Origin: a virus | Taxonomy: Duplodnaviria > Heunggongvirae > Uroviricota > Caudoviricetes | Length of the DNA: 37,809 nucleotides | IMG/VR virus record: IMGVR_UViG_2602041644_000008 | Location: 1 to 37,809 of that record | Strand: one strand, 5' to 3' | Shown: positions 1 to 37,809 of the stretch, piece after piece | Layout of the letters: each line of letters opens with the position of its first letter | Position numbering within the stretch: the stretch's first letter is position 1 | Translations under genes and position numbers: made by a program | Notes under the pieces: generated by a model | Seen by the model: the letters and a program-made list of their open reading frames with translations, nothing else | What the model was told of the DNA's origin: nothing | Database searches by the model: none

Positions 1-516
1 ATGAAATTTAAAAAATGTCTTCTGCCTGTGGCAATGTTAGCGTCATTCACTCTGGCAGGATGCCAGTCAAATGCTGATGATCATGCCGCCGATGTTTATC
101 AAACCGATCAACTGAATACCAAACAAGAAACTAAAACCGTTAATATTATTTCCATTCTTCCCGCAAAAGTTGCCGTAGACAACTCCCAAAATAAACGGAA
201 CGCACAAGCCTTCGGCGCGCTTATTGGTGCAGTCGCTGGCGGTGTAATCGGCCACAACGTGGGGTCTGGCAGCAATTCCGGAACGACGGCAGGTGCAGTT
301 GGCGGCGGAGCTGTTGGCGCGGCAGCGGGTTCTATGGTGAATGATAAAACCTTAGTGGAAGGTGTTTCTCTAACGTATAAGGAAGGCACCAAAGTGTATA
401 CCTCTACCCAGGTGGGTAAAGAGTGCCAGTTTACGACAGGTTTAGCCGTTGTTATTACCACGACGTATAACGAAACGCGTATTCAGCCAAATACGAAATG
501 TCCTGAAAAGAGCTAA
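1..516 (+). CDS. Host outer-membrane lipoprotein, glycine-zipper (SlyB/Pcp/YcfJ-like, Rick_17kDa_Anti-type)
   Basis: Signal peptide with lipobox LAGC; Gly/Ala-rich zipper AVAGGVIGHNVGSGS...AGAVGGGAVGAAAG typical of the SlyB/YcfJ family. RBS GGAGG precedes the next gene. Confidence 0.6.
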   Translation: MKFKKCLLPVAMLASFTLAGCQSNADDHAADVYQTDQLNTKQETKTVNIISILPAKVAVDNSQNKRNAQAFGALIGAVAGGVIGHNVGSGSNSGTTAGAVGGGAVGAAAGSMVNDKTLVEGVSLTYKEGTKVYTSTQVGKECQFTTGLAVVITTTYNETRIQPNTKCPEKS

Positions 517-531
517 TGATCAGGAGGAGTC

Positions 532-1071
532 ATGAAGAAAGTTTTTCTTTGCGCCATCTTAACCTCCTTAAGCTATCCGGCTATCGCCTCATCATTGCAG
601 GATCAACTCTCTGCTGTCGCAGAAGCGGAACAGCAAGGTAAAAATGAAGAGCAAAGGCAGCATGACGAATGGGTCGCGGAGCGCAACAGGGAAATCCAGC
701 AAGAGAAGCAACGTCGCGCAAACGCCCAGGCCGCCGCTAACAAAAGAGCGGCAACGGCAGCGGCAAATAAGAAAGCTCGTCAGGATAAACTGGACGCCGA
801 AGCCACTGCGGACAAAAAACGCGATCAAAGTTATGAAGATGAGCTACGCAGCTTAGAGATTCAGAAACAAAAACTGGCGCTGGCGAAAGAAGAAGCCCGC
901 GTTAAGCGAGAAAACGAATTTATCGATCAGGAACTGAAGCACAAAGCTGCGCAAACCGATGTGGTGCAATCTGAAGCTGACGCAAACAGGAATATGACTG
1001 AGGGCGGTCGCGATCTGATGAAAAGCGTGGGCAAAGCAGAAGAGAACAAATCGGACAGCTGGTTTAATTAA
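532..1071 (+). CDS. Host secreted Ala/Lys/Glu/Gln-rich coiled-coil protein (unknown function)
   Basis: N-terminal signal peptide MKKVFLCAILTSLSYPAIASS followed by a highly charged low-complexity region. Strong RBS AGGAGG upstream. Confidence 0.45.
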   Translation: MKKVFLCAILTSLSYPAIASSLQDQLSAVAEAEQQGKNEEQRQHDEWVAERNREIQQEKQRRANAQAAANKRAATAAANKKARQDKLDAEATADKKRDQSYEDELRSLEIQKQKLALAKEEARVKRENEFIDQELKHKAAQTDVVQSEADANRNMTEGGRDLMKSVGKAEENKSDSWFN

Positions 1072-6039: not shown

Positions 6040-6056
6040 ATTACCTTTCAGGTAAT
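6040..6056. promoter_or_regulatory. Operator dyad ATTACCTTTCAGGTAAT
   Basis: Perfect 6-N5-6 inverted repeat. Lies between the divergent tailspike gene and the 6133 ORF. Confidence 0.6.
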
Positions 6057-6092: not shown

Positions 6093-6112
6093 TACTGTAT
6101 AAATATACAGTT
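6093..6112. promoter_or_regulatory. LexA (SOS) box TACTGTATAAATATACAGTT
   Basis: Perfect CTGT-N8-ACAG with an AT-rich centre, 20 bp upstream of the 6133 start. Confidence 0.6.
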
Positions 6113-6132: not shown

Positions 6133-6390
6133 ATGCAGCAGTATCACTATCCACTGGAAGACGGATTTACCGAAAGGATTCACACGCCGGGAGGCGTCAG
6201 GTCACTGGTGGAGGGATCGCACTTGATGAAATTACTCCGGGATCTCGATAAGGATGGATTTAATGTCGATGGCCCACTTGCCGAACTGACTGCACTGATT
6301 AACTACGTCACCAGCTCACAGATGTCTATGCAGGATCTGCAAACACATCTCGACTATTGTGCCGAACAATTACGAAAACAAACCACATAA
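6133..6390 (+). CDS. Small protein (85 aa) paralogous to the C-terminal domain of the adjacent Bro-N protein; candidate SOS-induced antirepressor
   Basis: RBS GGAGAAG 7 nt upstream. Residues TPGGVRSLVEGSHLMKLLRDLDKDGFNVDGPLAELTALINYV..DLQTHLDY align with Bro residues SPSGVLGLTENSLLMNLLNQLQEDGHDVSGAAAELTTMFCYI..DIQTHAEY. LexA box upstream. Confidence 0.5.
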   Translation: MQQYHYPLEDGFTERIHTPGGVRSLVEGSHLMKLLRDLDKDGFNVDGPLAELTALINYVTSSQMSMQDLQTHLDYCAEQLRKQTT

Positions 6391-6412
6391 AGAAAAGGCC
6401 GCTAGAGCGGCC
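6391..6412 (-). terminator. Rho-independent terminator (mainly minus strand) after the 6412..7140 gene
   Basis: GGCCGC-TCTA-GCGGCC followed by TTTTCTTT on the minus strand. Confidence 0.5.
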
Positions 6413-7140
6413 TATCGTTTCGCTTTGTGCTCGTCCCAGCACGTTTTGCACCATGCCATTAAGCCATCCGCATTTTGATTATTAGGGTAAAAGCTGGTTC
6501 GTTTTCTGCGGACATTACAAATTGGGCACCACTTCATATGGCGTGTATTCTTTGGACCATCGAGACACCTTGCACACCACTTAGTCAATCCATCTGGATT
6601 TTTTGACGATTTCCTGAATTTTTCATATGGAAGGTTTATTCTGCATCGCAAGCACTGCTTGCTACCACTTGAAACTCTGTTAGCTGATTCTTCTTTTGGC
6701 GGCGATACAGAAGGTATTCTTGCTGGCTCTGATACTGCCTGAGGTGCTTTTTTAGATGACTGAGACGATATGTCATCACCAGGGAATCGTCCATGATATG
6801 CCGGACGCGTTGACACTCCAGGTGGAAGCTCTGCTGTAAATGGCTTTGGCTGAATCAGTTGCCTCTCTTTTGCTAACTCCTGCTGTTTATAATATGTCTG
6901 GATTACCGCACTATCATAAGCAGGAGGTGCGGAAATATTAGGCGCATTACCTCCAGTTTTTTGAAACTGAGTAGAGGTGTGTTCTATCACCTGTGTACGA
7001 TTAATCGTTATCTCCCCATCTTCGGTCTTTATCGTTTTGTTATGATTAACGACCGTACGATCAGAGATCTTAGTCTTGTTCTGGTTGATAACATAAATAA
7101 TCACCGCAACCACACCAACAACTATCCAGAAAACTTCCAT
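6412..7140 (-). CDS. Membrane-anchored protein with Pro/Ser-rich linker and C-terminal tandem CxxC zinc-ribbon repeats (unknown function)
   Basis: Strong RBS GAGGAAAAG. N-terminal TM FWIVVGVVAVIIYVI. C-terminus has two repeats: CLRCRINLPYEKFRKSSKNPDGLTKWCARC and CPICNVRRKRTSFYPNNQNADGLMAWCKTC. Low GC. Confidence 0.6.
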   Translation of the reverse strand: MEVFWIVVGVVAVIIYVINQNKTKISDRTVVNHNKTIKTEDGEITINRTQVIEHTSTQFQKTGGNAPNISAPPAYDSAVIQTYYKQQELAKERQLIQPKPFTAELPPGVSTRPAYHGRFPGDDISSQSSKKAPQAVSEPARIPSVSPPKEESANRVSSGSKQCLRCRINLPYEKFRKSSKNPDGLTKWCARCLDGPKNTRHMKWCPICNVRRKRTSFYPNNQNADGLMAWCKTCWDEHKAKR

Positions 7141-7159: not shown

Positions 7160-7176
7160 ATTACCTTAAAGGTAAT
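7160..7176. promoter_or_regulatory. Operator dyad ATTACCTTAAAGGTAAT
   Basis: Perfect dyad 20 bp upstream of the 6412..7140 start, in a divergent regulatory region. Confidence 0.6.
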
Positions 7177-7252: not shown

Positions 7253-7269
7253 ATTACCTTTTAGGTAAA
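7253..7269. promoter_or_regulatory. Operator dyad ATTACCTTTTAGGTAAA
   Basis: Second copy in the divergent region, 93 bp from the first. Adjacent inverted repeat TCAACC-N6-GGTTGA (7211-7228). Confidence 0.55.
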
Positions 7270-7535
7270 TTTACATCGCACTCCTCTTGTGCCATAGTAA
7301 TTGGGCACTGGCAAAATCCAGTGCCGGGATTGGTCTCCCGGATTACTACAGAGGCACATATGCCGCATAAGCGGTTTTTTTATGTGTAAAGCGCACCTAT
7401 TCTATGGTGAGCTGTGTGGGGGCACCGAAAGGTGCGCCGGGTTCCTTTGTAGCCGGTAAGACCAACTCTGCACAGTTCACCACCATCTGATTGGTCTCAG
7501 CGGTGGTGATTAACCTAACTACAAAGGTGATCGCC

Positions 7536-8228
7536 ATGAATACCAAACCTTCCATCTTTTCCTTTGAGTCATCCTGCCAGATCCGTATGTTCATGATTGA
7601 CGGAGAACCTTGGTTTGTCACCAAAGATGTGTGCAATGCTTTGAATATTGATGTTACACAAGCGAGAAAACTTGATAAAAAAGGCTGGAACAAAAAGGGG
7701 CTGTATTCAATACAGACCCCTGGTGGAATACAAGAACTATCCATCGTTTCAGAATCAGGTCTCTACATCCTTATTCTGCGTTGCAAAGAGGCAATGACAG
7801 AGGGAACGAGAGCGTTCAGATTTCTTGAATGGGTTACAGGTGAGGTTCTTCCTCAGATCCGCCGCACCGGAAGTTACATTAAAAACTCGCTCCCGCAGGA
7901 AGAACGCATAAAGATGGTTGCCGACCAGGTAGCCAACGCCACAGCATCAGCAATGATGCAGGCAATGAAGATAGAGAACAAAACCTACAGTGCCCCACTG
8001 AAGCCCGGCTACCGTAGCCTGATTCATTCTCCGTCTGGTGTTCTCGGCCTGACGGAGAACTCACTGCTGATGAATCTGCTGAACCAGTTACAGGAAGACG
8101 GGCACGATGTATCGGGCGCGGCGGCGGAGCTGACCACCATGTTCTGCTACATCGTCGGTGTGAGCAAATGCCTGCGTGATATCCAGACCCACGCGGAGTA
8201 CATCAACGACAAAGCAGGATTCTTCTGA
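7536..8228 (+). CDS. Bro-N domain protein (antirepressor-like, BRO family)
   Basis: Start moved to MNTKPS, which follows AAGGTG-N7-ATG. Bro-N signature FSFE...IRMFMIDGEPWFVTKDVCNALNI. C-terminal domain is paralogous to the 6133 ORF. Confidence 0.7.
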   Translation: MNTKPSIFSFESSCQIRMFMIDGEPWFVTKDVCNALNIDVTQARKLDKKGWNKKGLYSIQTPGGIQELSIVSESGLYILILRCKEAMTEGTRAFRFLEWVTGEVLPQIRRTGSYIKNSLPQEERIKMVADQVANATASAMMQAMKIENKTYSAPLKPGYRSLIHSPSGVLGLTENSLLMNLLNQLQEDGHDVSGAAAELTTMFCYIVGVSKCLRDIQTHAEYINDKAGFF

Positions 8229-8299: not shown

Positions 8300-8316
8300 A
8301 TTACCTTAAAGGTAAA
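8300..8316. promoter_or_regulatory. Operator dyad ATTACCTTAAAGGTAAA
   Basis: Immediately upstream of the promoter/RBS of the 8358 ORF. Confidence 0.55.
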
Positions 8317-8357: not shown

Positions 8358-8684
8358 ATGACAAAACTTGGATTCGTGATGAGAGGTCCGGTAAGAAGCG
8401 GAACTCATGCAAAGCGTAGCAAGAGTCGTATTTTTACTGGTAAGGTTGTAGCACGTAAATCAGCTATTGGCTCGTTCAATAGTGAAAATGCGGCATTGCG
8501 CCATATTTTTATCAGCACAAAGCCAAGAGCATCCGCTGATGTGCATACAATGTCTATTCCTATCACAAAGAATATCAAGCGGATAAAAAAGCTCTCATCT
8601 GCAGAATCAAAAGAGATATCTTTCCGCCAGCTTAACTCATTAGAAACGCATATGAAGGAAGAGGAATTCGATGTTTTTGAGTGA
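8358..8684 (+). CDS. Basic 108-aa protein, first gene of a two-gene operon (putative antitoxin partner)
   Basis: RBS GGAGATTAAAG-ATG. Overlaps the downstream gene by 14 nt. No recognisable domain. Confidence 0.35.
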   Translation: MTKLGFVMRGPVRSGTHAKRSKSRIFTGKVVARKSAIGSFNSENAALRHIFISTKPRASADVHTMSIPITKNIKRIKKLSSAESKEISFRQLNSLETHMKEEEFDVFE

Positions 8685-9183
8685 GTATAGCGGGAAGGTT
8701 ATACCTACTGGTGAGTTTAAAACTGATGACTTTCTGATTTCGCTAAAAGATGCTTTTAAACAACACTGGCGTCATGGTCATCATCCTGATCTGGGAAAAG
8801 ATACTCTTTTTGAAAGACCAGACGAAGTATTAGGCTTCCATCTCAGAAAGGTTCATGTCAATATTGGTGAATATGCATCATATTCATACTCATGTACTGA
8901 ACAGTGTTGGGATGAGTGGTCATATGGATTGATTGATGAACAAGGAAATTACAGGCCAAAACCAACCAGTAACGCATATCTCATATATGCAGTCAATGAA
9001 ATAAGAGATGCAGCCTTACTAGCTTATTGGGACCCGCCCGCACACACCAAAGCTAACGCAAAAGTTTGGATGGATTCCGTATTGAATTTCACAAAATTAT
9101 TTCATGAACGAACTAATACAGCTCCACTTAGTAGAAATGTTTATCCGTGGGATTATTCGTACAAATCCAAAAAGCCTGCATAG
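8671..9183 (+). CDS. YafO-like toxin family protein (candidate type II TA toxin)
   Basis: RBS GGAAGAGGA. Segments HPDLGKDTLFERPDE, FHLRKVHVNIGE, NAYLIYAV and ALLAYWDPPAH parallel E. coli YafO motifs (LPDIFGRDALYDD, FERVAHIHLANE, AHLVYC, LLIAILKPEPH). Comparison is from memory only. Confidence 0.4.
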   Translation: MFLSEYSGKVIPTGEFKTDDFLISLKDAFKQHWRHGHHPDLGKDTLFERPDEVLGFHLRKVHVNIGEYASYSYSCTEQCWDEWSYGLIDEQGNYRPKPTSNAYLIYAVNEIRDAALLAYWDPPAHTKANAKVWMDSVLNFTKLFHERTNTAPLSRNVYPWDYSYKSKKPA

Positions 9184-9264
9184 TAGTTTTTTATGGACGA
9201 AACAAAAGTCAGTGCTACACTCATTGACGCCACATTGAGGTGGCTTATAGATGGAAATTTCACA

Positions 9265-9426
9265 ATGAAAAAAGCATTTGCTGCACTGTTCGTTTTGTTG
9301 TCTCTGGTAGCTTCAACTCAGGCCTTTGCCGGTCGTTGTCAGCACGACAGCGATACTGCCGCTGACGGCTCCCGCTGCGGTGGGCGTTCTGCGGATTCCC
9401 GCCCGGGCGGCGGTGGCATTCGTTAA
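9265..9426 (+). CDS. Small secreted peptide (signal peptide MKKAFAALFVLLSLVASTQAFA plus 31-aa Gly/Ser/Asp-rich part with 2 Cys)
   Basis: Internal ATG of tracked ORF 9193..9426. A 5-codon uORF (MEISQ, 9251..9268) with SD GAGGTGG overlaps this start as ATGA. Start site uncertain. Confidence 0.3.
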   Translation: MKKAFAALFVLLSLVASTQAFAGRCQHDSDTAADGSRCGGRSADSRPGGGGIR

Positions 9427-17484: not shown

Positions 17485-19955
17485 CAGAATCCCCCAACAG
17501 TAAGGCGAGGAATAACGGCAAGAACAGACAGCGGCAACGGATCAAGCTGACGGATTTTTACACGTCCGTTTTTGCCCCAGTTACTGTCCAGTTTCACTTC
17601 TACTTTTCCGGTAGCATCATCAACAGGATCATCGTAGAACTCGAATTCACGCTGTGGATATTCGTACCATTTACCGCCGGGCGTAGTCGCCCAGATGCCG
17701 CGACTGGCATTCACAACCAGAGTAACGGAGGGGATCACCTGTTTTTTGTCCAGCAGCGTTTCCTGTCCGTTAATGTTGATATCCAGTGTTTCGAATTCAG
17801 CAGTTATTGGCAGGCCGATGTGCACTACAGCCCCCGGAGATTCCAGCGTGACGGCACCTCCGGAAACCACTTTCTGTGGTTCCACGTTCGCATCAGAGAG
17901 AATGTTTACGGTCTGGCCTTCAAGATGAGACAGGCCTCCAAATGTCCGGCGCGCCATCTGCCAGTTCGTGGTGGCCACATTCCTGAGGGATGGCGGGACG
18001 TTCCTGTTAGCACGAACCACTACAGCGGTGTTGCTGGTTACAGAAATAATGTCGCAACGTAATTCTTTTGACACTTCATCGCCAGTATCAGGATCAGTTC
18101 CGGTATAAGGGAACTGTAGTTGCGCGCCGACATCACTACTGGTGAAGTACGCACCACCAGAAACACTGATTGTATATTCCGCATGGTAATCCCATTCACC
18201 AGAACCACCAGTGATGGTCATCGTTCTGTCAGACGTATTTCTTCCATCATAGCTAAGGCCAGAATCAACAAAGAAAGCATCTTCATCGCTGGTAAATAAA
18301 CGGCTGGACAGTCGCTCGATGTATCTCACTGTTTGCCCGTTAACGGTTCGGTTAACGACGAAATACACCGCATCTTCATTGCCTTCGCTGATACTGCATG
18401 TGCTTTCATATTTTCCGGTACTGGATTGTGGTGCCCATGCAAAAACCTGCTGATCACGCAAATAGGTCATCACCAGTAATTTACCGTCATCACGAATGCA
18501 GAAGGCACTGGAGTAAGGGACAATCGAGAAGCACCAGTCAACAATGCTGTGCTTCTGAAAAAGATGATTGGCAAGGATGGTCAGGTCGTTCCCCTGATAG
18601 CCGTCAACATCGAATGAGTAGGCCAGATCACGGACAACGCTGCCTTTCTCCTGGACGAACAGAGCAATATTCGCCACGGCAATTGGCGGGACGTTGCTTG
18701 AGCCATTTGATCCCTGAGAGCTGAATGCAAATGATGATGGGGTTAACACTTTGTTCTGGTCGCCGGTGATGACGTACTCACCTCCGGAAGTCAGCGCCAC
18801 CAGAGAACCAACATCAATCAGGTGACGGATCTCATTAACCTGACGCCCGGCATAGGTGTAGATAATTCTGTCGTCATCCTGCGTAGGATTGCTTTTGCCA
18901 AAATCCTTATAATCCCCGGTACGGCTGGCCCAGATAGTCTGAGGGAACGCAGTCGATGCGGCGAAGTAAAGACGTTGTTGATAATAAACAACAGTGCCAG
19001 GATAACCATTAACACTGTTCCAGGCATATTTAGCCCATTTATAGCTGGCATTATCCTCGCCAACGACCTGCGAAGGGATATAGGAAATCACCTCGGCAGT
19101 TGCAGTAGTTCCATTTGCAGCAGTGATACGGGCAATGCCAAAACCACTGTGCAGATATTCCCACTCAATGCCGGTATCATCATCACCGGATCCGCCCCAG
19201 CCATCCCATGATGTGCCTTCTGTATGCGAAGGGCGCAAAGTGCCTGTTTTACCTGCTGTAACAGCGCGATAGTAGTTACTGTCTGCACGGCGAACATCGT
19301 CAATCGACGTACTCTTACTGGTTTCCCATACCGGCACTGAATCCACTGCAGGCTGTTCCAGATAGAACAATTTGCCTACCTGCTCCGAGCCAAAAATAGA
19401 GGCGCTTGCCGTTAACGTAATTGTCCCGGTGCTGGCGCTGGCATAAACCGTCACTGACTCGTCAATATTGATATCTTCAAATGGTCCGTTCTTCGTTACC
19501 ACATCAACCAGTTGCCAGTTGTCATGCGCATAGCGACGCAACTCTTTCGGCGGGTATGCCGGATGAACCAGCGTAAGCACGTCTGCGCTTTGCGTGAATT
19601 TAATTCGGAACAGATCGGCTTCAGTATATGGCGTGGCAATTTCATAAATAACATTGCTGCTGTTCAGCACCAACGCACCATCTTTGATAACGCGCATGTA
19701 CTGGTGTCCGAACTCCAGAGCATAGGTCTGAACCGTCGAGAACTGGAACGGGATCAGGCGGCATTTCCGATTTTGGTATTTGGCGGCACCGACAAAACGC
19801 GTACCAGGTCGATTCTCAACGCCGCCATACTGCCGCACGATAAAGTTATCGCACTTGCGCAATGCTACCTGGTACTTCGCCATGTCAATACGCCCGTACA
19901 ACGACGGTCCAATCTCACCACCGGCAAAACTGGGCTGGATCCAACTGATAGCCAT
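17484..19955 (-). CDS. Tail tubular protein B / nozzle (T7 gp12-like)
   Basis: 823 aa versus 794 for gp12. N-terminus MAISWIQPSFAGGEIGP parallels gp12 MALISQSIKNLKGGISQQP. Follows the gp11-like gene. Confidence 0.55.
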   Translation of the reverse strand: MAISWIQPSFAGGEIGPSLYGRIDMAKYQVALRKCDNFIVRQYGGVENRPGTRFVGAAKYQNRKCRLIPFQFSTVQTYALEFGHQYMRVIKDGALVLNSSNVIYEIATPYTEADLFRIKFTQSADVLTLVHPAYPPKELRRYAHDNWQLVDVVTKNGPFEDINIDESVTVYASASTGTITLTASASIFGSEQVGKLFYLEQPAVDSVPVWETSKSTSIDDVRRADSNYYRAVTAGKTGTLRPSHTEGTSWDGWGGSGDDDTGIEWEYLHSGFGIARITAANGTTATAEVISYIPSQVVGEDNASYKWAKYAWNSVNGYPGTVVYYQQRLYFAASTAFPQTIWASRTGDYKDFGKSNPTQDDDRIIYTYAGRQVNEIRHLIDVGSLVALTSGGEYVITGDQNKVLTPSSFAFSSQGSNGSSNVPPIAVANIALFVQEKGSVVRDLAYSFDVDGYQGNDLTILANHLFQKHSIVDWCFSIVPYSSAFCIRDDGKLLVMTYLRDQQVFAWAPQSSTGKYESTCSISEGNEDAVYFVVNRTVNGQTVRYIERLSSRLFTSDEDAFFVDSGLSYDGRNTSDRTMTITGGSGEWDYHAEYTISVSGGAYFTSSDVGAQLQFPYTGTDPDTGDEVSKELRCDIISVTSNTAVVVRANRNVPPSLRNVATTNWQMARRTFGGLSHLEGQTVNILSDANVEPQKVVSGGAVTLESPGAVVHIGLPITAEFETLDININGQETLLDKKQVIPSVTLVVNASRGIWATTPGGKWYEYPQREFEFYDDPVDDATGKVEVKLDSNWGKNGRVKIRQLDPLPLSVLAVIPRLTVGGF

Positions 19956-25433: not shown

Positions 25434-25450
25434 ATTACCTTTCAGGTAAG
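25434..25450. promoter_or_regulatory. Operator dyad ATTACCTTTCAGGTAAG next to a TTGACA -35 box (25413-25418)
   Basis: Intergenic, between the start of the minus-strand late genes and the plus-strand leader/tRNA unit. Confidence 0.5.
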
Positions 25451-25771: not shown

Positions 25772-25848
25772 GTGGCATTAGCTCAGTTGGACAGAGCAAC
25801 CGCCTTCTAAGCGGTTGGTTGCAGGTTCGAATCCTGCATGCCACGCCA
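25772..25848 (+). tRNA. tRNA-Arg (anticodon UCU)
   Basis: Cloverleaf: acceptor GTGGCAT/ATGCCAC, D-arm GCTC..GAGC, anticodon stem ACCGC/GCGGT with loop CTTCTAA, T-arm GCAGG-TTCGAAT-CCTGC, 3' CCA encoded. Resembles argU. Confidence 0.85.
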
Positions 25849-26493: not shown

Positions 26494-27969
26494 TTAAGCA
26501 TAGGGATCGTAATCTGTAATGGCCTTGCCTTGCTGGTTCTGCTGACCTGGAATTCGCAGACGCTTCGACACAGGGAAAGCAAACGTCAGCAATAGCGCAT
26601 CGCCTTTACCCGGCGAACGCCCAAGCCGCTCCTTGATATCTTCCTTCGGTTCGATAACGATTTTACCGTCCACTCGAACTTTGTACTCTGCCGCCGACAG
26701 GTCGTCCGCTGTTTCCTGGTCATCAAGCATCCCGCCCAGCCTCAGCCATGTCTTGCATGAGTTGAACATCTCCCCACGCTTGTTGAGCATCTGCGGGTCA
26801 GTAGACGCGCCACCGAACGGAACAAGTTGCCATGTGCGCCCCCAACCGTCACCGATTGACTTCAGACCGGTACCGTAACCAAAGTCGATGAACACTGCGT
26901 CAGCCTGATACAGGTCTTCAAAGTCAGCGATACGCTTCGCCATAATCAGATCGTCGGTAGTCTTGTTGCCAGTCCACAGCACCTTACTGTGTAGCCCCTG
27001 CCGCAGGTATATCACCGCGTCATCAACGCCTGAATATGCCGGGTCAACACCGATTATCACCGGAGCATGCGCCACCTGCGCAGCGGTTACCACCCGTTTC
27101 ATTGCCTCATCAGTAAGACCGGTAGGGATAAACTGCAATTCAGATGCATCAGGGAATATGCCGCGCACACGGATTTTAACGAAGTCGCTGTCTTCCCCGT
27201 AGTCATCAACCCATTTCTGCAACTGCTGTTTGTTAGTGCCTTCCACCGTCCGGCTGTCAATCTGCGCAGTTTTCCAGCGGTGTTTATATTTGCGGAAACA
27301 TTCGCGGAAACGCCCGGTGTTACGTGTAGGGTTTCCGAACGCCACCCAGATAATCTCAGTGTCTTCGTCCGTAAGCGCACCCTCAGCAACTTCCCACACC
27401 AGATCCGCAATGTTCGACGCTTCATCGAATACCACGATGATGCGTTTGCGCTCGTTGTGTAGTCCGGCGAATGCCTCAGTGTTGTGCTCAGACCAGGGTA
27501 TTGCGTCAGCCCGCCACCGCTTGTCGTGCCCAGGGTCATTGCTGTACATCGCGGTAGCGGTACAGGTAAACCAGTCTTTCGTGATAGCAAGGTTAGACCA
27601 CTTGATAATTTCCGGCCAGGTCTTCGTTCGTAGCTGGTTGTCGGTGTTAGCGGTCACCACAACCTTACAATCCTCGCAAGTGGACATGCCCCAGTTGATC
27701 AGCATTGAGATGAATGCGGATTTACCAATACCGTGACCAGAAGCGCGTGCCAGCATAAGCGGCTGATAGCGCGTCTCTGGATTCTGCAGGTGATCACGTA
27801 TCTCTCGGAACGCATCAGCCTGCCACTGACGTGGGCCGGTGGCATGTGCCAGTTCAGTCCCCTCTTCCCCCCACGGGAACGCATAGAGAGCATAGCCAAG
27901 CGGATCGTGAGTGAACCCTGCAATATCCTCGATCAACTGCTCTTCAGGAGATAACGCTGTATCTGTCAC
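26494..27969 (-). CDS. Terminase large subunit
   Basis: 491 aa. ATPase region GHGIGKSAFISMLINW (Walker A-like) and VVFDEASNI (Walker B-like). C-terminal nuclease-like region. Overlaps the terS stop. Confidence 0.85.
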   Translation of the reverse strand: MTDTALSPEEQLIEDIAGFTHDPLGYALYAFPWGEEGTELAHATGPRQWQADAFREIRDHLQNPETRYQPLMLARASGHGIGKSAFISMLINWGMSTCEDCKVVVTANTDNQLRTKTWPEIIKWSNLAITKDWFTCTATAMYSNDPGHDKRWRADAIPWSEHNTEAFAGLHNERKRIIVVFDEASNIADLVWEVAEGALTDEDTEIIWVAFGNPTRNTGRFRECFRKYKHRWKTAQIDSRTVEGTNKQQLQKWVDDYGEDSDFVKIRVRGIFPDASELQFIPTGLTDEAMKRVVTAAQVAHAPVIIGVDPAYSGVDDAVIYLRQGLHSKVLWTGNKTTDDLIMAKRIADFEDLYQADAVFIDFGYGTGLKSIGDGWGRTWQLVPFGGASTDPQMLNKRGEMFNSCKTWLRLGGMLDDQETADDLSAAEYKVRVDGKIVIEPKEDIKERLGRSPGKGDALLLTFAFPVSKRLRIPGQQNQQGKAITDYDPYA

Positions 27970-28563
27970 TGATTACCATCCTGACGTTCTTTGAGTCGCT
28001 TCCTGGCTGCCGCTATGCGATCAGCAATTGTCACATTCACATTAACATCCAGGCGTTCTTTGAACGCGTTGACATCAACATGCTTACCAATCAGCTCAAG
28101 GTTCTTCACCTTGTCAGGCCATTTAATTTTTTTGAGGATTGTCTCTATCGAATCCTCGTTCATGTTCATGATGGTCGATGACAGATCAAAGCCACTAAGC
28201 GTAGTGCGCCAGATTTTCGGCCACTCACGGATTGGTTTAAGGCTCCCATCGTCGTTGAGGATGTCGATCACGTCCATCTGGTCGATCTCCACCAGGCGCA
28301 TGAGAACGTAATCAGCACTGACGCGCATTCGTTTGTTGCGCTCCTCCATCAACTCGGCAATCCGTTTTTGAATGCGTTCATCGCGCATCATGACACTGGC
28401 TTTAACTGCCGCTGTATTTGGGGAGAATCCTGCGTTAATCGCTGCCTGAGTTTGGTTTTCAGGCGTTTTGATGTATGACTGGCAATAAGCCTCCTGCATT
28501 GTTGTTAGTGGCTTAAATTGCGTTGATTTGCGTTTATAGGTTTTAGGTTCAGCAGGCATCATA
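27966..28563 (-). CDS. Terminase small subunit
   Basis: Start moved to MMPAEPK; the tracked N-terminal 26 codons translate the operator/terminator repeats. HTH-like N-terminus and basic C-terminus. Directly upstream of terL. Confidence 0.65.
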
Positions 28564-28595
28564 ACCACCGTGGTAATAGTTACCGTTGTGGTAAT
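28561..28595. promoter_or_regulatory. Two adjacent operator-like dyads (ATAACCACCGTGGTAAT and GTTACCGTTGTGGTAAT) over the terS start region
   Basis: 6-N5-6 dyads matching the genome-wide motif. Located between the upstream terminator and the terS ATG. Confidence 0.5.
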
Positions 28596-28602
28596 AGTAC
28601 CA

Positions 28603-28631
28603 TGCAAAATAAAGCCGCCATAGTTGGCGGC
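28603..28631 (-). terminator. Rho-independent terminator upstream of terS (end of early/nin transcription or tR'-like element)
   Basis: Minus strand GCCGCC-AACTAT-GGCGGC followed by TTTATTTTG. Confidence 0.55.
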
Positions 28632-28672
28632 AGTATTCAAAATCCATCAAATTCATCATGCATAATCTACTC

Positions 28673-31902: not shown

Positions 31903-32202
31903 TCACATCACCCTGAAGCCGTTGCATTTACGTAAAAAATCGCAGATATAGCCCTTCATTTTTTCGTGCCAATCTCGATCATTCCCATTGCACCAACCAT
32001 CAGGTGGAGTCCAGTTTTCTATCAGAGCAGCCATTTTCTTTGCTTTCGCCGGAGTAGCTGTTGCGGTATCGCAGTAATGACGAGTGTCAACCAACGTATC
32101 CATACCATCGATATCAAGTACGCAAAACCATGTGTGATTCGGAATTCCTACAGGTGGTATTTGTTGCCCACGTCGACGTTTATCAATAAGATATACACTC
32201 AC
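31903..32202 (-). CDS. Hypothetical protein (99 aa)
   Basis: ORF with coupled start/stop. Cys/His/Trp-rich. Confidence 0.4.
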   Translation of the reverse strand: MSVYLIDKRRRGQQIPPVGIPNHTWFCVLDIDGMDTLVDTRHYCDTATATPAKAKKMAALIENWTPPDGWCNGNDRDWHEKMKGYICDFLRKCNGFRVM

Positions 32203-32768
32203 TGGTTACCTCCTTTGCGAAGCTCTGCGGCGATATCTTCGAGAACGCCATCAGAGAATGAGCGGTCAAAATCGCCTTCCGGCGCATTAGCCATAAACTC
32301 AGTAGAGGTAAGAATCATCCGGGCAATATCCGCGGCGTTCTTCGCAGTATCATCAATAAAACCAGCTTCCCAGGCAGCCAGCATTCTGTTCGCCACAAAG
32401 TAAGCGCCCTCCTTGCGTGCTTCAGTCTTCACTTCAGCTAGGAAAGCATCGGTGGCTGGAATGGGCTTTTGTGGTGATATAGCAATGCGAATTGTCTCAA
32501 GGTCTGGAGCTGTTTCCGCTGTTGGCACCTTGATATAACCCGTCTGCACCCCATTCATGATGAACCTGCGACGGTCATCACATATCGCCTTAAGCCCCGC
32601 ATTCTCCGCTGCCAGCGCATTAGCACGCACCAGTTGCACTTCCAGTTGCGTTGCCAAATCGCTGATCAGCTTTGTCACACTGCGCATATCAACGGCACCA
32701 CATTCTGCTTTCAGTTCCGAAGCCATCTCATGCCCGGCGGCAACTAACCCTTTGATATTACTTTCCAT
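32199..32768 (-). CDS. Hypothetical protein (189 aa)
   Basis: ORF in the early-operon continuation. No domain recognised. Confidence 0.4.
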   Translation of the reverse strand: MESNIKGLVAAGHEMASELKAECGAVDMRSVTKLISDLATQLEVQLVRANALAAENAGLKAICDDRRRFIMNGVQTGYIKVPTAETAPDLETIRIAISPQKPIPATDAFLAEVKTEARKEGAYFVANRMLAAWEAGFIDDTAKNAADIARMILTSTEFMANAPEGDFDRSFSDGVLEDIAAELRKGGNQ

Positions 32769-33176: not shown

Positions 33177-33193
33177 TTTACCCATGAGGTAAT
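33177..33193. promoter_or_regulatory. Operator dyad TTTACCCATGAGGTAAT
   Basis: Abuts the start codon of the 32830..33174 gene. Confidence 0.5.
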
Positions 33194-33238
33194 TAAAAAC
33201 CACATAAGACACGAAATCAATAGATCTTAGAACATTTT

Positions 33239-33255
33239 ATTACCTAGCAGGTAAT
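33239..33255. promoter_or_regulatory. Operator dyad ATTACCTAGCAGGTAAT
   Basis: Perfect dyad between the post-P terminator and the DUF1064 gene. Confidence 0.55.
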
Positions 33256-34904: not shown

Positions 34905-35174
34905 TCAGCTTGAATGTTGTGGGGAGGAATTAATCATGATCTGCTTAATCTCTGCCCTGATACGACGGTTTGATTCCATGGTGCACTCAACACAGTGTCC
35001 GTTGTAAACCCAGCGTTCACTGTCATGTCCGTGCTTACATGGTTTTCCGGTGTAGTAGCGTTTAAGTCCGCGCTTTGCGGCATCAATACGTGTAATGATT
35101 TCCATGGTAAGCCCTGTTATTAGTATTGGGATTACGGTCATTTTGTGCTGACACAAAAAAAAGATCAACCACAT
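34905..35174 (-). CDS. Small Cys/His-rich (zinc-ribbon-like) protein, CII-position gene; start uncertain (M1, M12 or M24)
   Basis: KPCKHGHDSERWVYNGHCVEC motif. First gene after the cro terminator and an operator. Confidence 0.4.
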   Translation of the reverse strand: MWLIFFLCQHKMTVIPILITGLTMEIITRIDAAKRGLKRYYTGKPCKHGHDSERWVYNGHCVECTMESNRRIRAEIKQIMINSSPQHSS

Positions 35175-35184
35175 TTGGTTATTT

Positions 35185-35201
35185 ATTACCTTTGAGGTAC
35201 G
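35185..35201. promoter_or_regulatory. Operator dyad ATTACCTTTGAGGTACG
   Basis: Between the cro terminator and the zinc-ribbon gene. Confidence 0.5.
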
Positions 35202-35210
35202 AATAGATAT

Positions 35211-35233
35211 GAAAAGACCGCCGGGTGGCGGTC
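35211..35233 (-). terminator. Terminator after the cro-like gene (tR1-like)
   Basis: Minus strand GACCGCC-ACCC-GGCGGTC followed by TTTTC. Confidence 0.5.
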
Positions 35234-35255
35234 TACAGAGGGTTGTAGCTGGATA

Positions 35256-35486
35256 TCATGAGTAGAAGAAGTATGCCAGTTCTGCTTTTGAGTGCAGCCA
35301 TTGTCTTGATTTACAGGCTTTAAAAAGCCCATTCATCAATACCTTACCTGGCATTTTGCGCTTACCTGTTAAGTGAGTCTGGATATAGTGACTCGTCGTT
35401 CCGGCTTCCTGTGCGAAGGCTTCACGCTCATCCGGAGTAAGTGCAAGCCAGTGCTTTTTGAAATCGAAATGTCCGTTATCGCTCAT
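35256..35486 (-). CDS. Cro/CII-like HTH regulator (first gene of the early operon divergent from the repressor)
   Basis: HTH segment FAQEAGTTSHYIQTHLTG resembles the CII-type HTH. Position equals cro. Confidence 0.55.
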   Translation of the reverse strand: MSDNGHFDFKKHWLALTPDEREAFAQEAGTTSHYIQTHLTGKRKMPGKVLMNGLFKACKSRQWLHSKAELAYFFYS

Positions 35487-35521
35487 AGCTATTGCCTGAT
35501 ATTTATTTCAGATAATAAATA

Positions 35522-35538
35522 TTCACCTATAAGGTAAC
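35522..35538. promoter_or_regulatory. Operator O1 TTCACCTATAAGGTAAC (cro-proximal)
   Basis: One of three tandem dyads in the 154-bp cI-cro intergenic region. Confidence 0.6.
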
Positions 35539-35552
35539 AAAAATCAAGGATA

Positions 35553-35569
35553 GTTACCCATGAGGTGCA
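35553..35569. promoter_or_regulatory. Operator O2 GTTACCCATGAGGTGCA
   Basis: Centre 31 bp from O1. Confidence 0.55.
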
Positions 35570-35586
35570 TTTACCTGTTGGGTAAT
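35570..35586. promoter_or_regulatory. Operator O3 TTTACCTGTTGGGTAAT (repressor-proximal)
   Basis: Abuts O2. Lambda OR-like tripartite arrangement. Confidence 0.55.
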
Positions 35587-35640
35587 ATTGCTTTAAATTG
35601 AATCATCTTCTGATTCAGATATGAGGCGATTTTCCAGAAA

Positions 35641-36225
35641 ATGAAAAGTATCCAGGACGTCCGCAGGCAAAATCTCAACGACTTGATCGACCGTGAATTC
35701 AATGGTGTTCAGACGCGGATGGCTGAAAAACTTGGAACTCAGGCAAATCTGGTAAACCGCTGGGCTCTTGGCAAGAAGGTTATCGGCGACCAGGTTGCGC
35801 GAAAAATTGAAGCTGCCGCCAATAAACCCCGTAACTGGCTTGATATCGATCGCTCGCTTTCTCAGGAAGGTTTTCAGCCTGTCGGACCAAGCGACATTGG
35901 TCAACTGGCGGCTCACAACCTGGAACGCTGGATGAGCGAAAGCCGCGACCTTTCAACGCAGGGAAAACTTCACCGCGCATCCGGCGTCGCCCAGGTAACA
36001 ATCAGCCGCCTGTTAAACAATGAGGTCAGCGTTTCCATTTCCACCCTGGAGAATGTTGCATCCGCATTTGGGCGTCACGGATATGAATTACTGATTCACC
36101 CGCACGACCCCGCGACTATCAACTATGACCGCTCGCGCTACGCATTGTTACCTGAAACAGAGAAGGCAAAGATCGAAAGTTACATTGAATTTGTCATCAA
36201 CCAGAACGAAAAAAACAAACAATAA
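35641..36225 (+). CDS. Prophage repressor, two XRE-type HTH domains, no S24/LexA-like peptidase domain
   Basis: HTH1 TRMAEKLGTQANLVNRWALGKK. HTH2 LHRASGVAQVTISRLLNNEVSVSISTLENVASAFG. No Ser/Lys autocleavage module. Divergent from cro with three operators. Confidence 0.65.
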   Translation: MKSIQDVRRQNLNDLIDREFNGVQTRMAEKLGTQANLVNRWALGKKVIGDQVARKIEAAANKPRNWLDIDRSLSQEGFQPVGPSDIGQLAAHNLERWMSESRDLSTQGKLHRASGVAQVTISRLLNNEVSVSISTLENVASAFGRHGYELLIHPHDPATINYDRSRYALLPETEKAKIESYIEFVINQNEKNKQ

Positions 36226-36247
36226 AATCATATTTTTCAGTAAGTAA

Positions 36248-36270
36248 GCCGCCTTCTGGCGGCTTTTTTA
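36248..36270 (+). terminator. Rho-independent terminator after the repressor gene
   Basis: GCCGCC-TTCT-GGCGGC followed by TTTTTT. Confidence 0.65.
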
Positions 36271-36281
36271 TTGCCTATTTG

Positions 36282-36298
36282 ATTACCTAACGGGTAAT
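36282..36298. promoter_or_regulatory. Operator dyad ATTACCTAACGGGTAAT
   Basis: Perfect dyad upstream of the promoter for the recombination operon. Confidence 0.55.
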
Positions 36299-36316
36299 TT
36301 TTTTAACTCATATCTA

Positions 36317-36360
36317 TTGACATCAAACCAGATACGCATAATTATTACCTCAACGGTAAC
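36317..36360 (+). promoter_or_regulatory. Early promoter (TTGACA-17-AATTAT) with operator ATTACCTCAACGGTAAC (36344..36360) over the -10/+1 region
   Basis: Consensus -35 hexamer. Dyad overlaps the -10/start region. Drives the plus-strand genes from 36379 onward (PL-like). Confidence 0.5.
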
Positions 36361-36833: not shown

Positions 36834-37036
36834 AACCAACACTCCTCTCATTGCTGCGAGGTGGAAAACACAGCATCCGAGATATGGCAAAGATTCTTGG
36901 TATCTCAAGATCGAAGGTTTCTTGGTTCATCGCTGAGCTTGAACGTCGCAAATGGGTAGAGGTAACCAGGAGCGCAATATATTTCCACGATGGAACCAGA
37001 TCCAACAAGCAGAACGAATACAAGGTTAAGTTATGA
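36830..37036 (+). CDS. Small winged-helix/HTH-like protein (68 aa)
   Basis: IRDMAKILGISRSKVSWFIAELERRKWVEV is HTH-like. Stop overlaps the next start. Confidence 0.4.
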   Translation: MKPTLLSLLRGGKHSIRDMAKILGISRSKVSWFIAELERRKWVEVTRSAIYFHDGTRSNKQNEYKVKL

Positions 37037-37560
37037 ATACTGGCATCTATTTCGACATCAGCAATGAGGACTACCACGCCGGTGACGGCGTGAGTAAGTC
37101 GCAACTAGACATGGTTGCCAAGAATCCGGCGCTTCTTAAATGGGTTCAGGCAGCACCAGAAGACGAAGAGAAAAAGTCTGCACTGGATATGGGAACCGCA
37201 TTGCACTGTCTGCTTCTGGAGCCTGGAGAGTTCGACAAACGCTTCATTGTTTCACCGAAATTCGATCGTCGGACGAAACAAGGTAAAGCTGACGAAGAGG
37301 CATTTCTTCGTGATGTGGCGGATATGGGGATTACGGTACTTGATGCCGAGCAGTGGCGGAAACTGGAGCTGATGCGTGATAGCGCAATGGCTCACCCGGC
37401 GGCACGCTGGATGCTGGAAGCACCTGGTTACTGCGAAGCATCAATGTACTGGAACGATGAAGATACTGGTGAGTTGTGCCGCATTCGTCCAGACAAATGG
37501 CTGAACGAGCACAACGTGATCGTCGACGTGAAAAAGGTTGCAGATATGGACCGTTTTGCA

Positions 37561-37581
<21 letters not shown>
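37033..37581 (+). pseudogene. RecE/YqaJ-like PD-(D/E)XK exonuclease, 3' truncated by IS insertion
   Basis: Motifs GTALHCLLLEPGEF, IRPDKW and IVDVKK (catalytic D-x-K) present. Expected C-terminal region replaced by CQRHDV-stop, read from IS-derived sequence starting near 37561. Confidence 0.5.

Positions 37582-37809
<228 letters not shown>

Follow-up and report, generated by a model that had tools for sequence, protein, structure and literature searches.

Immunity and induction in a phiV10/epsilon15-like prophage of Escherichia coli: a probable Rep-Ant switch under LexA control

The DNA considered here, IMG/VR virus record IMGVR_UViG_2602041644_000008 (37,809 nucleotides, the whole of which is called the window below), is a phiV10/epsilon15-like (Uetakevirus) temperate podovirus prophage of Escherichia coli. 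Its repressor gene, rep, the operators between rep and a divergent cro-like gene, and a small gene, ant, preceded by a LexA box, are the subject of this report. It is very probable that they form the immunity and induction switch of this phiV10/epsilon15-type podovirus and that the switch is of the kind found in Salmonella phage SPC32H, with the repressor Rep freed from DNA by the LexA-controlled antirepressor Ant. The Rep-Ant antirepression system of SPC32H was reportedly described by Kim & Ryu (2013) and by Kim et al. (2016), with PDB entries 5D50 and 5D4Z. The features on which the argument turns are listed below.

6093..6112, LexA box, 20-mer TACTGTATAAATATACAGTT, two mismatches to the E. 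coli consensus TACTGTATATATATACAGTA, ending 20 nucleotides (nt) before the ant ATG
6133..6390, plus strand, ant, small antirepressor of 85 amino acids (aa), likely start ATG 6133 after GGAG (mechanical open reading frame (ORF) from 6118)
35256..35486, minus strand, Cro-like gene of 76 aa, first gene of the replication/late-direction operon
35487..35640, divergent intergenic region of 154 bp between rep and the cro-like gene
35512..35540, minus strand, predicted PR-like promoter of the cro-like gene, TTGTTA-17-TATTAT, from a consensus scan only
35522..35538, operator O-a, nearest the cro-like gene, TTCACCTATAAGGTAAC, one core mismatch
35553..35569, operator O-b, middle and degenerate, GTTACCCATGAGGTGCA, two core mismatches, right half GGTGC
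35570..35586, operator O-c, nearest rep, perfect, TTTACCTGTTGGGTAAT
35641..36225, plus strand, rep, ORF of 194 aa from the ORF listing

The repressor and the antirepressor

Rep is 100% identical to the annotated repressors of phage phiV10 (PhiV10p40), of vB_EcoP_ZX5 (ORF21; the phage is called ZX5 below) and of several other E. coli phages. Overexpression of ORF21 abolished free phage and cut the endolysin and holin transcripts by >99.9% (PMC9782041), so the claim of an earlier note on this DNA, made from the letters alone, that the 194-aa protein is the immunity repressor is supported by the behaviour of an identical protein. The similarity to the epsilon15 repressor (gp38) is lower, 42-43% identity overall, and is unevenly spread: the N-terminal domain reaches 54%, the tail 45% and the middle domain 34%. 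The helix 2-3 motif NLVNRW of the N-terminal domain is common to Rep of this prophage, epsilon15 and SPC32H, and so is the operator half-site TTACC.

A Pfam search of Rep returned the helix-turn-helix (HTH) family HTH_3 (E=1.2e-9) in two stretches, of which residues 106-147 scored best, and more weakly an HTH of the Cro/YdaS type (residues 21-61). In the AlphaFold (AF2) model, with a mean pLDDT of 79, HTH-like helical domains are found at residues 4-59 (pLDDT about 90) and 85-151, and a C-terminal helix at 164-193. When Rep was searched against solved structures, residues 1-190 matched residues 2-197 of 5D50_A, the repressor chain of an entry titled 'Rep-Ant complex from Salmonella-temperate phage' (E=4e-42), and residues 89-190 matched 5D4Z, the tetramer of Rep 92-198 (E=4e-20). 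The same two entries headed the Foldseek results obtained with the model (target-normalised TM 0.70-0.76 to the 5d4z chains), and the lower matches were generic XRE-family HTH proteins: SinR, ClgR, DdrO and HigA.

Later papers assign to SPC32H Rep an N-terminal DNA-binding domain (DBD), a middle dimerisation domain (MDD) and a C-terminal p53-like tetramerisation domain that is also the Ant-binding domain (CAD) (PMC9986798). Secondary accounts also describe SPC32H Rep as DNA-bound in the form of a tetramer, with two domains from different dimers reading one palindrome, and Ant as a tetramer. By homology to that protein, Rep of this prophage would be made of a DNA-binding HTH (about residues 1-70), an HTH-like dimerisation domain (about 85-152) and a tetramerisation and Ant-binding tail (about 153-194), and both the predicted dimerisation domain and the predicted tail are matched by sequence as well as by fold. 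The two XRE-type HTH modules proposed in the earlier note were both detected by Pfam and in the AF2 model; the second of them, which gives the stronger Pfam signal (106-147), is nevertheless by analogy with SPC32H Rep the domain serving dimerisation and not DNA binding. The domain list was correct as to the two HTH units, but it missed the C-terminal tetramerisation and Ant-binding tail. To call such a pair unusual was an overstatement: the phiV10 record already carries the remark 'two helix-turn-helix motifs' on its repressor, and structures are known for the family.

The absence of a peptidase domain, also claimed earlier, held. Peptidase_S24 (PF00717) gave no Pfam match in Rep even at E<=1, and none of the 86 homolog clusters taken from a collection of 5.8 billion proteins contained it; apart from a few fragments, these homologs are mostly 190-200 aa long. 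Neither an Ala-Gly nor a Cys-Gly cleavage dipeptide occurs anywhere in the Rep sequence, and the searches by Pfam, dipeptide and fold revealed no cryptic peptidase or cleavage site.

The product of ant matches chain 5D50_E, 'Anti-repressor protein', with E=1.4e-47, which agrees with the suggestion that the gene behind the LexA box encodes an antirepressor. Ant is 86% identical to gp19 of epsilon15 and 96.5% identical to phiV10p24; no Pfam family was assigned to it. A perfect 16-bp LexA box, CTGTATAAATATACAG, lies at 6095-6110, 22 nt before ATG 6133, and a LexA box stands in the same place before ant in epsilon15 and phiV10, that is in all three phages examined. Two more exact CTGT-N8-ACAG matches in the window (21422 and 25964) were rejected as LexA boxes, being structural or tRNA-adjacent sequence without a TA-rich core. 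In SPC32H the antirepressor is under LexA control, according to later papers that cite the original work (PMC7380047, PMC9638917, PMC9986798). Taken with the homologies of Rep and Ant to 5D50, this literature supports antirepressor-based induction over autocleavage, as had been proposed.

A further observation is that Rep is far less conserved than Ant: when this prophage is compared with epsilon15, identity is 43% for Rep and 86% for Ant. The surface that Ant touches may be small and conserved, perhaps within the C-terminal tail (45%), or antirepressors may act across heterologous Reps, as reported for Gifsy phages.

Operators in the rep/cro-like region and across the prophage

The core of the operator dyad is TTACC-N5-GGTAA. 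Three 17-bp dyads are present in the 154-bp divergent region, where about 0.045 sites are expected by chance for the core with up to two mismatches. Two of them abut and one is 31 bp away, just where the earlier note had placed them (start to start, 31 bp from O-a to O-b and 17 bp from O-b to O-c). The variant TTACC-N7-GGTAA was tried as an operator motif and discarded, as it shows no enrichment (16 matches, 10.5 expected), and the N5 spacing is the correct one. O-a is located over the spacer and the -35 of the predicted rightward promoter. O-c overlaps TTTACC-17-TTAAAT, which is probably the rep promoter; this is our own reading, and its support is conservation. The sequence GCTTTAAATTG flanking O-c is conserved in the compared locus L005, and a near-identical stretch is found in epsilon15.

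The same arrangement of three sites is found in epsilon15, in phiV10, in a Serratia prophage (Rep 54% identical) and a metagenomic phage (Rep 58% identical). The conserved order is an imperfect O-a (TCACC or comparable), an interval of 30-31 bp, a degenerate O-b, 17 bp, and a perfect O-c; epsilon15 departs from it in that O-b, too, is perfect. The TCACC variant of O-a is kept in epsilon15, phiV10 and L005, and the GGTGC half-site of O-b is also found in the Serratia locus L004. The persistence of this layout down to 54% Rep identity argues for selection on it.

The tripartite operator of the earlier note is present, but the sites are not confined to the region between the two genes. In the whole window the core occurs 41 times with up to two mismatches (11.0 +/- 3.4 expected) and 11 times exactly (0.01 expected), and all of the exact dyads lie outside likely coding sequence. 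Beyond the three sites, the operator set read from the sequence consists of the left operator (OL) and about ten further putative dyads at most other transcription-unit boundaries, among them the following.

6040..6056, Rep dyad ATTACCTTTCAGGTAAT in the ant-tailspike divergent region; the epsilon15 equivalent, 19895-19911, carries a repressor-site annotation
7160..7176, dyad 21 bp upstream of a 242-aa gene (6412..7140, minus strand)
8300..8316, dyad upstream of a three-gene cluster (8358..9426, plus strand)
25434..25450, dyad before the gp3-like/portal gene cluster; the epsilon15 equivalent, 2931-2947, is annotated 'repressor'
28561..28595, dyad pair 18 bp apart, directly upstream of the terminase small-subunit ATG 28559; the epsilon15 equivalent, site 12-27, is annotated 'repressor'
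33177..33193 and 33239..33255, two perfect dyads 62 bp apart between replication gene P and a DUF1064 gene
36282..36360, plus strand, OL with the leftward promoter (PL), perfect dyads at 36282-36298 and 36344-36360 with centres 62 bp apart
36317..36345, PL of the early-left operon, TTGACA-17-AATTAT, strong, right after the rep terminator and bracketed by the OL dyads

In epsilon15, in phiV10 and in the prophage of E. coli strain DETEC-S566 the dyads occupy equivalent positions and keep the same spacings (62, 18, 17 and 30-31 bp). The pair at 33177..33255 follows a terminator-like hairpin, stands before the DUF1064 gene and brackets an internal promoter, TTGATT-17-TTTAAT; it is conserved in epsilon15 (where one site is annotated 'repressor'), phiV10 and L001. 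The OL pair is likewise found in epsilon15, phiV10 and L001, and the epsilon15 OL sites are annotated 'repressor'. As for the 62-bp pairs themselves, they lie at 36283/36345 and 33178/33240 in the window, at 32555/32617 and 35907/35969 in L002, and at 31953/32015 and 35070/35132 in L003; within a pair, the first dyad precedes the -35 by about 20 bp and the second covers the -10/+1, and the spacing is kept in all four genomes examined. Such a conserved distance suggests that one tetramer might clamp both flanks of a promoter. In total seven 'repressor' binding sites are annotated in the epsilon15 RefSeq record, none of them in the rep-gp39 region. Public annotation already includes both the pair of HTH motifs and the scattered repressor sites.

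Some of these dyads touch the reading of neighbouring genes. The mechanical ORF of the terminase small subunit (terS), 27966-28640 on the minus strand, starts at TTG 28640 and would include both Rep dyads (28562/28580). The epsilon15-equivalent start, ATG 28559, comes right after the dyads and its 197-aa product is still a full Terminase_2 match; since that start follows the dyads, the longer, phiV10-style TerS annotation is probably too long. The 242-aa protein (6412-7140) has C-terminal Zn-ribbon/endonuclease VII-like repeats (phrog_6762), and the cluster at 8358-9426 encodes phrog_5933, phrog_1651 (with a weak YafO-like match) and a membrane-associated 77-aa protein. These are accessory genes between the tailspike and virion genes, and because a perfect Rep dyad lies just upstream of each unit, they may be Rep-regulated and not constitutive morons. 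Lastly, the plus-strand stretch 35167-35200, which carries the dyad at 35186, is 76% identical to the -10/operator part of PL (36326-36350). Situated downstream of the cro-like gene and its terminator, it may act as a PRE-like promoter whose transcript would run antisense across the cro-like gene and on into rep; alternatively, it could be the operator of the next rightward unit.

Induction, rival explanations and related systems

In the lysogen, Rep tetramers bound to the dyads would hold the rightward promoter (PR), PL and the other lytic promoters off. O-a would occlude the rightward promoter, O-b and O-c would lie over or beside the rep promoter, and at OL the two dyads 62 bp apart would bracket PL. 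Dyads stand also before other transcription units, so that Rep probably shuts most lytic transcription directly. LexA would meanwhile keep ant off; after DNA damage, LexA self-cleavage would uncover the ant promoter and allow Ant to accumulate. By analogy with SPC32H, Ant would then bind the C-terminal part of Rep and take the tetramer off the DNA, and the lytic units would fire. Repressor activity, the Rep-Ant complex and LexA control have been shown by others for identical or homologous proteins; for the present prophage we infer that tetramers bind these particular dyads, that the dyads belong to the promoters named and that this Rep interacts with this Ant.

A different trigger is offered by a second antirepressor module in the window, with these parts.

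7253..8228, plus strand, second antirepressor module (dyad, promoter, isrK, C4 and Bro-N gene)
7253..7269, Rep dyad of the module, abutting the -35 of the isrK promoter
7270..7298, isrK promoter, TTTACA-17-CATAGT, from a promoter scan
7305..7381, isrK RNA, Rfam 74.7 bits (gathering score 50)
7400..7487, C4 antisense RNA, Rfam 78.2 bits (gathering score 45)
7536..8228, plus strand, Bro-N antirepressor gene, Pfam Bro-N 2e-13

It could be supposed that the Bro-N protein with its isrK/C4 leader is the main trigger of induction and that the small Ant is accessory or serves another purpose. Overexpression of the Bro-N protein ORF4 in ZX5 lowered prophage counts from 1e9 to 1e6 and rep transcripts by 75% (PMC9782041), the module is conserved in phiV10, and an isrK-type locus gates the antirepressor gene anrP in Gifsy-1. 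The Bro-N promoter, however, has no LexA box and has a Rep dyad at its -35, so it should be off in a lysogen and unable to start induction alone; epsilon15 lacks the whole isrK/C4/Bro-N module, yet it has the same Rep, Ant and LexA box; and similarity between the Bro-N proteins of ZX5 and phiV10 amounts to only 39%. On balance a triggering role is improbable. Amplification after the first inactivation of Rep is more likely, and the module may be a second-tier antirepressor controlled by Rep. Still less room is left for a RecA-stimulated self-cleavage of Rep at a cryptic site or by a cryptic peptidase, the route taken by lambda CI, P22 C2 and LexA. The lambdoid gene order of the switch and the induction of ZX5 lysogens by mitomycin C (PMC9782041) would suit it indirectly at most, but against it stand the lack of S24 and of a cleavage dipeptide described above, the all-helical Rep fold of 5D50/5D4Z, which accounts for the whole chain, and the presence of a dedicated LexA-controlled Ant; this explanation can be regarded as the least credible of all. 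Hardly more credible is the idea that the 194-aa protein is some other XRE-type regulator or an antitoxin and not the immunity repressor. One phage record (H23) does label it 'antidote protein VapI', and HigA-type antitoxins are among the weaker fold matches. The gene nevertheless occupies the cI position between divergent early operons, the dyads are found at PR, at PL and before other transcription units, and the ORF listing has no toxin gene next to it; moreover, the protein is identical to the one that silences the lysis genes in ZX5 and homologous to SPC32H Rep and to a protein labelled 'repressor' in the epsilon15 GenBank record.

Several points weigh against a Rep-Ant switch as drawn here. 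The consensus scan returned no rep promoter, and this promoter was not located with confidence. The ZX5 study credited antirepression to the Bro-N protein, the small Ant lying outside that study (PMC9782041). Because a Rep dyad is found 40 bp upstream of the LexA box, Rep could also influence the ant or the tailspike promoter. Finally, the Reps of SPC32H and epsilon15 share only about 42% of their residues with this one, falling to 34% in the middle domain, whereas Ant is 86% identical; the pairing of Rep with Ant is therefore assumed.

Among known systems, the Rep-Ant switch proposed for the prophage is closest to that of SPC32H, a phage of the same epsilon15-like podovirus genus type: the two Reps align along the full chain, both are built on the three-part plan and neither has a peptidase, an Ant homolog is present, and a LexA box precedes an ant gene that is divergent from the tail-spike gene. 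The differences are that Rep is only about 42% identical, that the host here is E. coli, and that phages of the phiV10 type possess the extra isrK/C4/Bro-N module. With phiV10 and ZX5 the prophage shares the identical repressor, the same neighbourhood and the guaA-integrating type; there is no difference in the protein, but the window prophage has an IS21-family insertion in its recE-like gene. The operators and the small LexA-controlled Ant are undescribed in the ZX5 text consulted and in the phiV10 record. The TTACC-N5-GGTAA core and the three-site OR layout (17 bp + 30 bp) are shared with epsilon15. That phage also has one dyad pair at OL and another downstream of its replication genes, both spaced 62 bp, and it has operators ahead of terS, of gp3 and of the tail fibre gene; its Rep, however, is 43% identical, it is without the Bro-N module and its annotated sites skip the rep-gp39 region.

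The Gifsy prophages and Tum of coliphage 186 follow the same logic, in which LexA derepression of a small antirepressor inactivates a non-cleavable repressor by protein-protein contact; no sequence relationship to them was seen, and none was sought. P1/Gifsy-type RNA-gated antirepressor loci resemble the Bro-N module in having isrK and C4 elements upstream of the antirepressor gene. With the switches of the lambda CI, P22 C2 or LexA type there are in common the divergent repressor and cro genes, a three-site operator between them, an operator at the leftward promoter and an N-terminal HTH, but Rep has neither the S24 domain nor a cleavage site. By analogy with SPC32H, Rep would differ also in oligomerising through an HTH-like domain and a p53-like tail, and induction would be reversible and exerted by an antirepressor, with operators standing also before the late units.

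A broader circuit may be imagined, albeit tentatively and with the odds rather against it as a whole, in which a genome-wide clamp by Rep, the omission of a Q-type activator step and a two-tier induction by Ant and then Bro-N are combined. The dyads mark nearly every transcription-unit boundary, often in the order terminator, dyad or dyads, promoter. Each promoter bracketed at 62 bp could be looped out by a single tetramer whose DNA-binding domains are paired in trans, and the late genes would be held off directly, without a Q-type activator. Ant would strip Rep from the DNA first, and derepression of the isrK/C4-gated Bro-N antirepressor would then lock the decision in. The parts of this scheme are individually known; the circuit as a whole is undescribed in the literature surveyed and may be unexplored.

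Prophage context, distribution and significance

The neighbourhood of rep is the lambda cI arrangement in mirror image. Minus-strand late and replication genes are followed by the cro-like gene, the operators and the plus-strand rep, and beyond rep come its terminator (36246-36265), a second operator/promoter region and the plus-strand early-left genes. The cro-like protein belongs with phrog_35, transcriptional repressor (E=2.6e-12), and is 78% identical to gp39 of epsilon15. Two minus-strand ORFs within rep (35593..35916 and 35780..36001) were set aside as mechanical antisense ORFs without support. The two hairpins of the region are these.

35215..35234, minus strand, terminator-like hairpin 3' of the cro-like gene, then a dyad at 35185-35201
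36246..36265, plus strand, terminator-like hairpin at the end of the rep transcript

Elsewhere in the window, a tRNA gene (25772-25845, plus strand, Rfam 73 bits) lies between the terminase and portal clusters, and its equivalent in DETEC-S566 is annotated tRNA-Arg. At the left edge, beyond the lysis genes, plus-strand ORFs (1-1071) encode a glycine-zipper/TraT-like lipoprotein (1..516) and a DUF5384 protein (532..1071), which could be prophage-end cargo or host flank. The recE-like PD-(D/E)XK nuclease gene (window 37033-37809) ends at about 37560, giving 182 aa in place of the 273 aa in DETEC-S566; an IS21-family element is inserted in it, with the IstB C-terminus on the minus strand at 37621..37800. 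As the recE-like gene is broken by this insertion, the early-left operon of the prophage is disrupted.

Of 5426 complete E. coli genomes, 541 (about 10%) carry a 1.3-kb stretch around rep at 95% identity or more, and 529 carry the ant region. In strain DETEC-S566 the matching stretch is within a prophage beside guaA, whose content includes T7-gp14-like core proteins, the Bbp16 cement protein, a DnaT-like/lambda-P replication module and RecT.

The finding is already known, since the identical protein is on record as a repressor and a sister phage has provided both a crystal structure and the mechanism. RefSeq nevertheless names Rep only 'helix-turn-helix domain-containing protein' and Ant 'hypothetical protein', so the annotation can be upgraded. 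The discovery value is thus little, with some practical value in that the immunity region occurs in about 10% of complete E. coli genomes. The operator map, with about 16 dyads and conserved spacings, provides ready predictions for footprinting or ChIP, and it gives a way to ask how a trans-paired tetrameric repressor reads sites that are 17, 31 and 62 bp apart.

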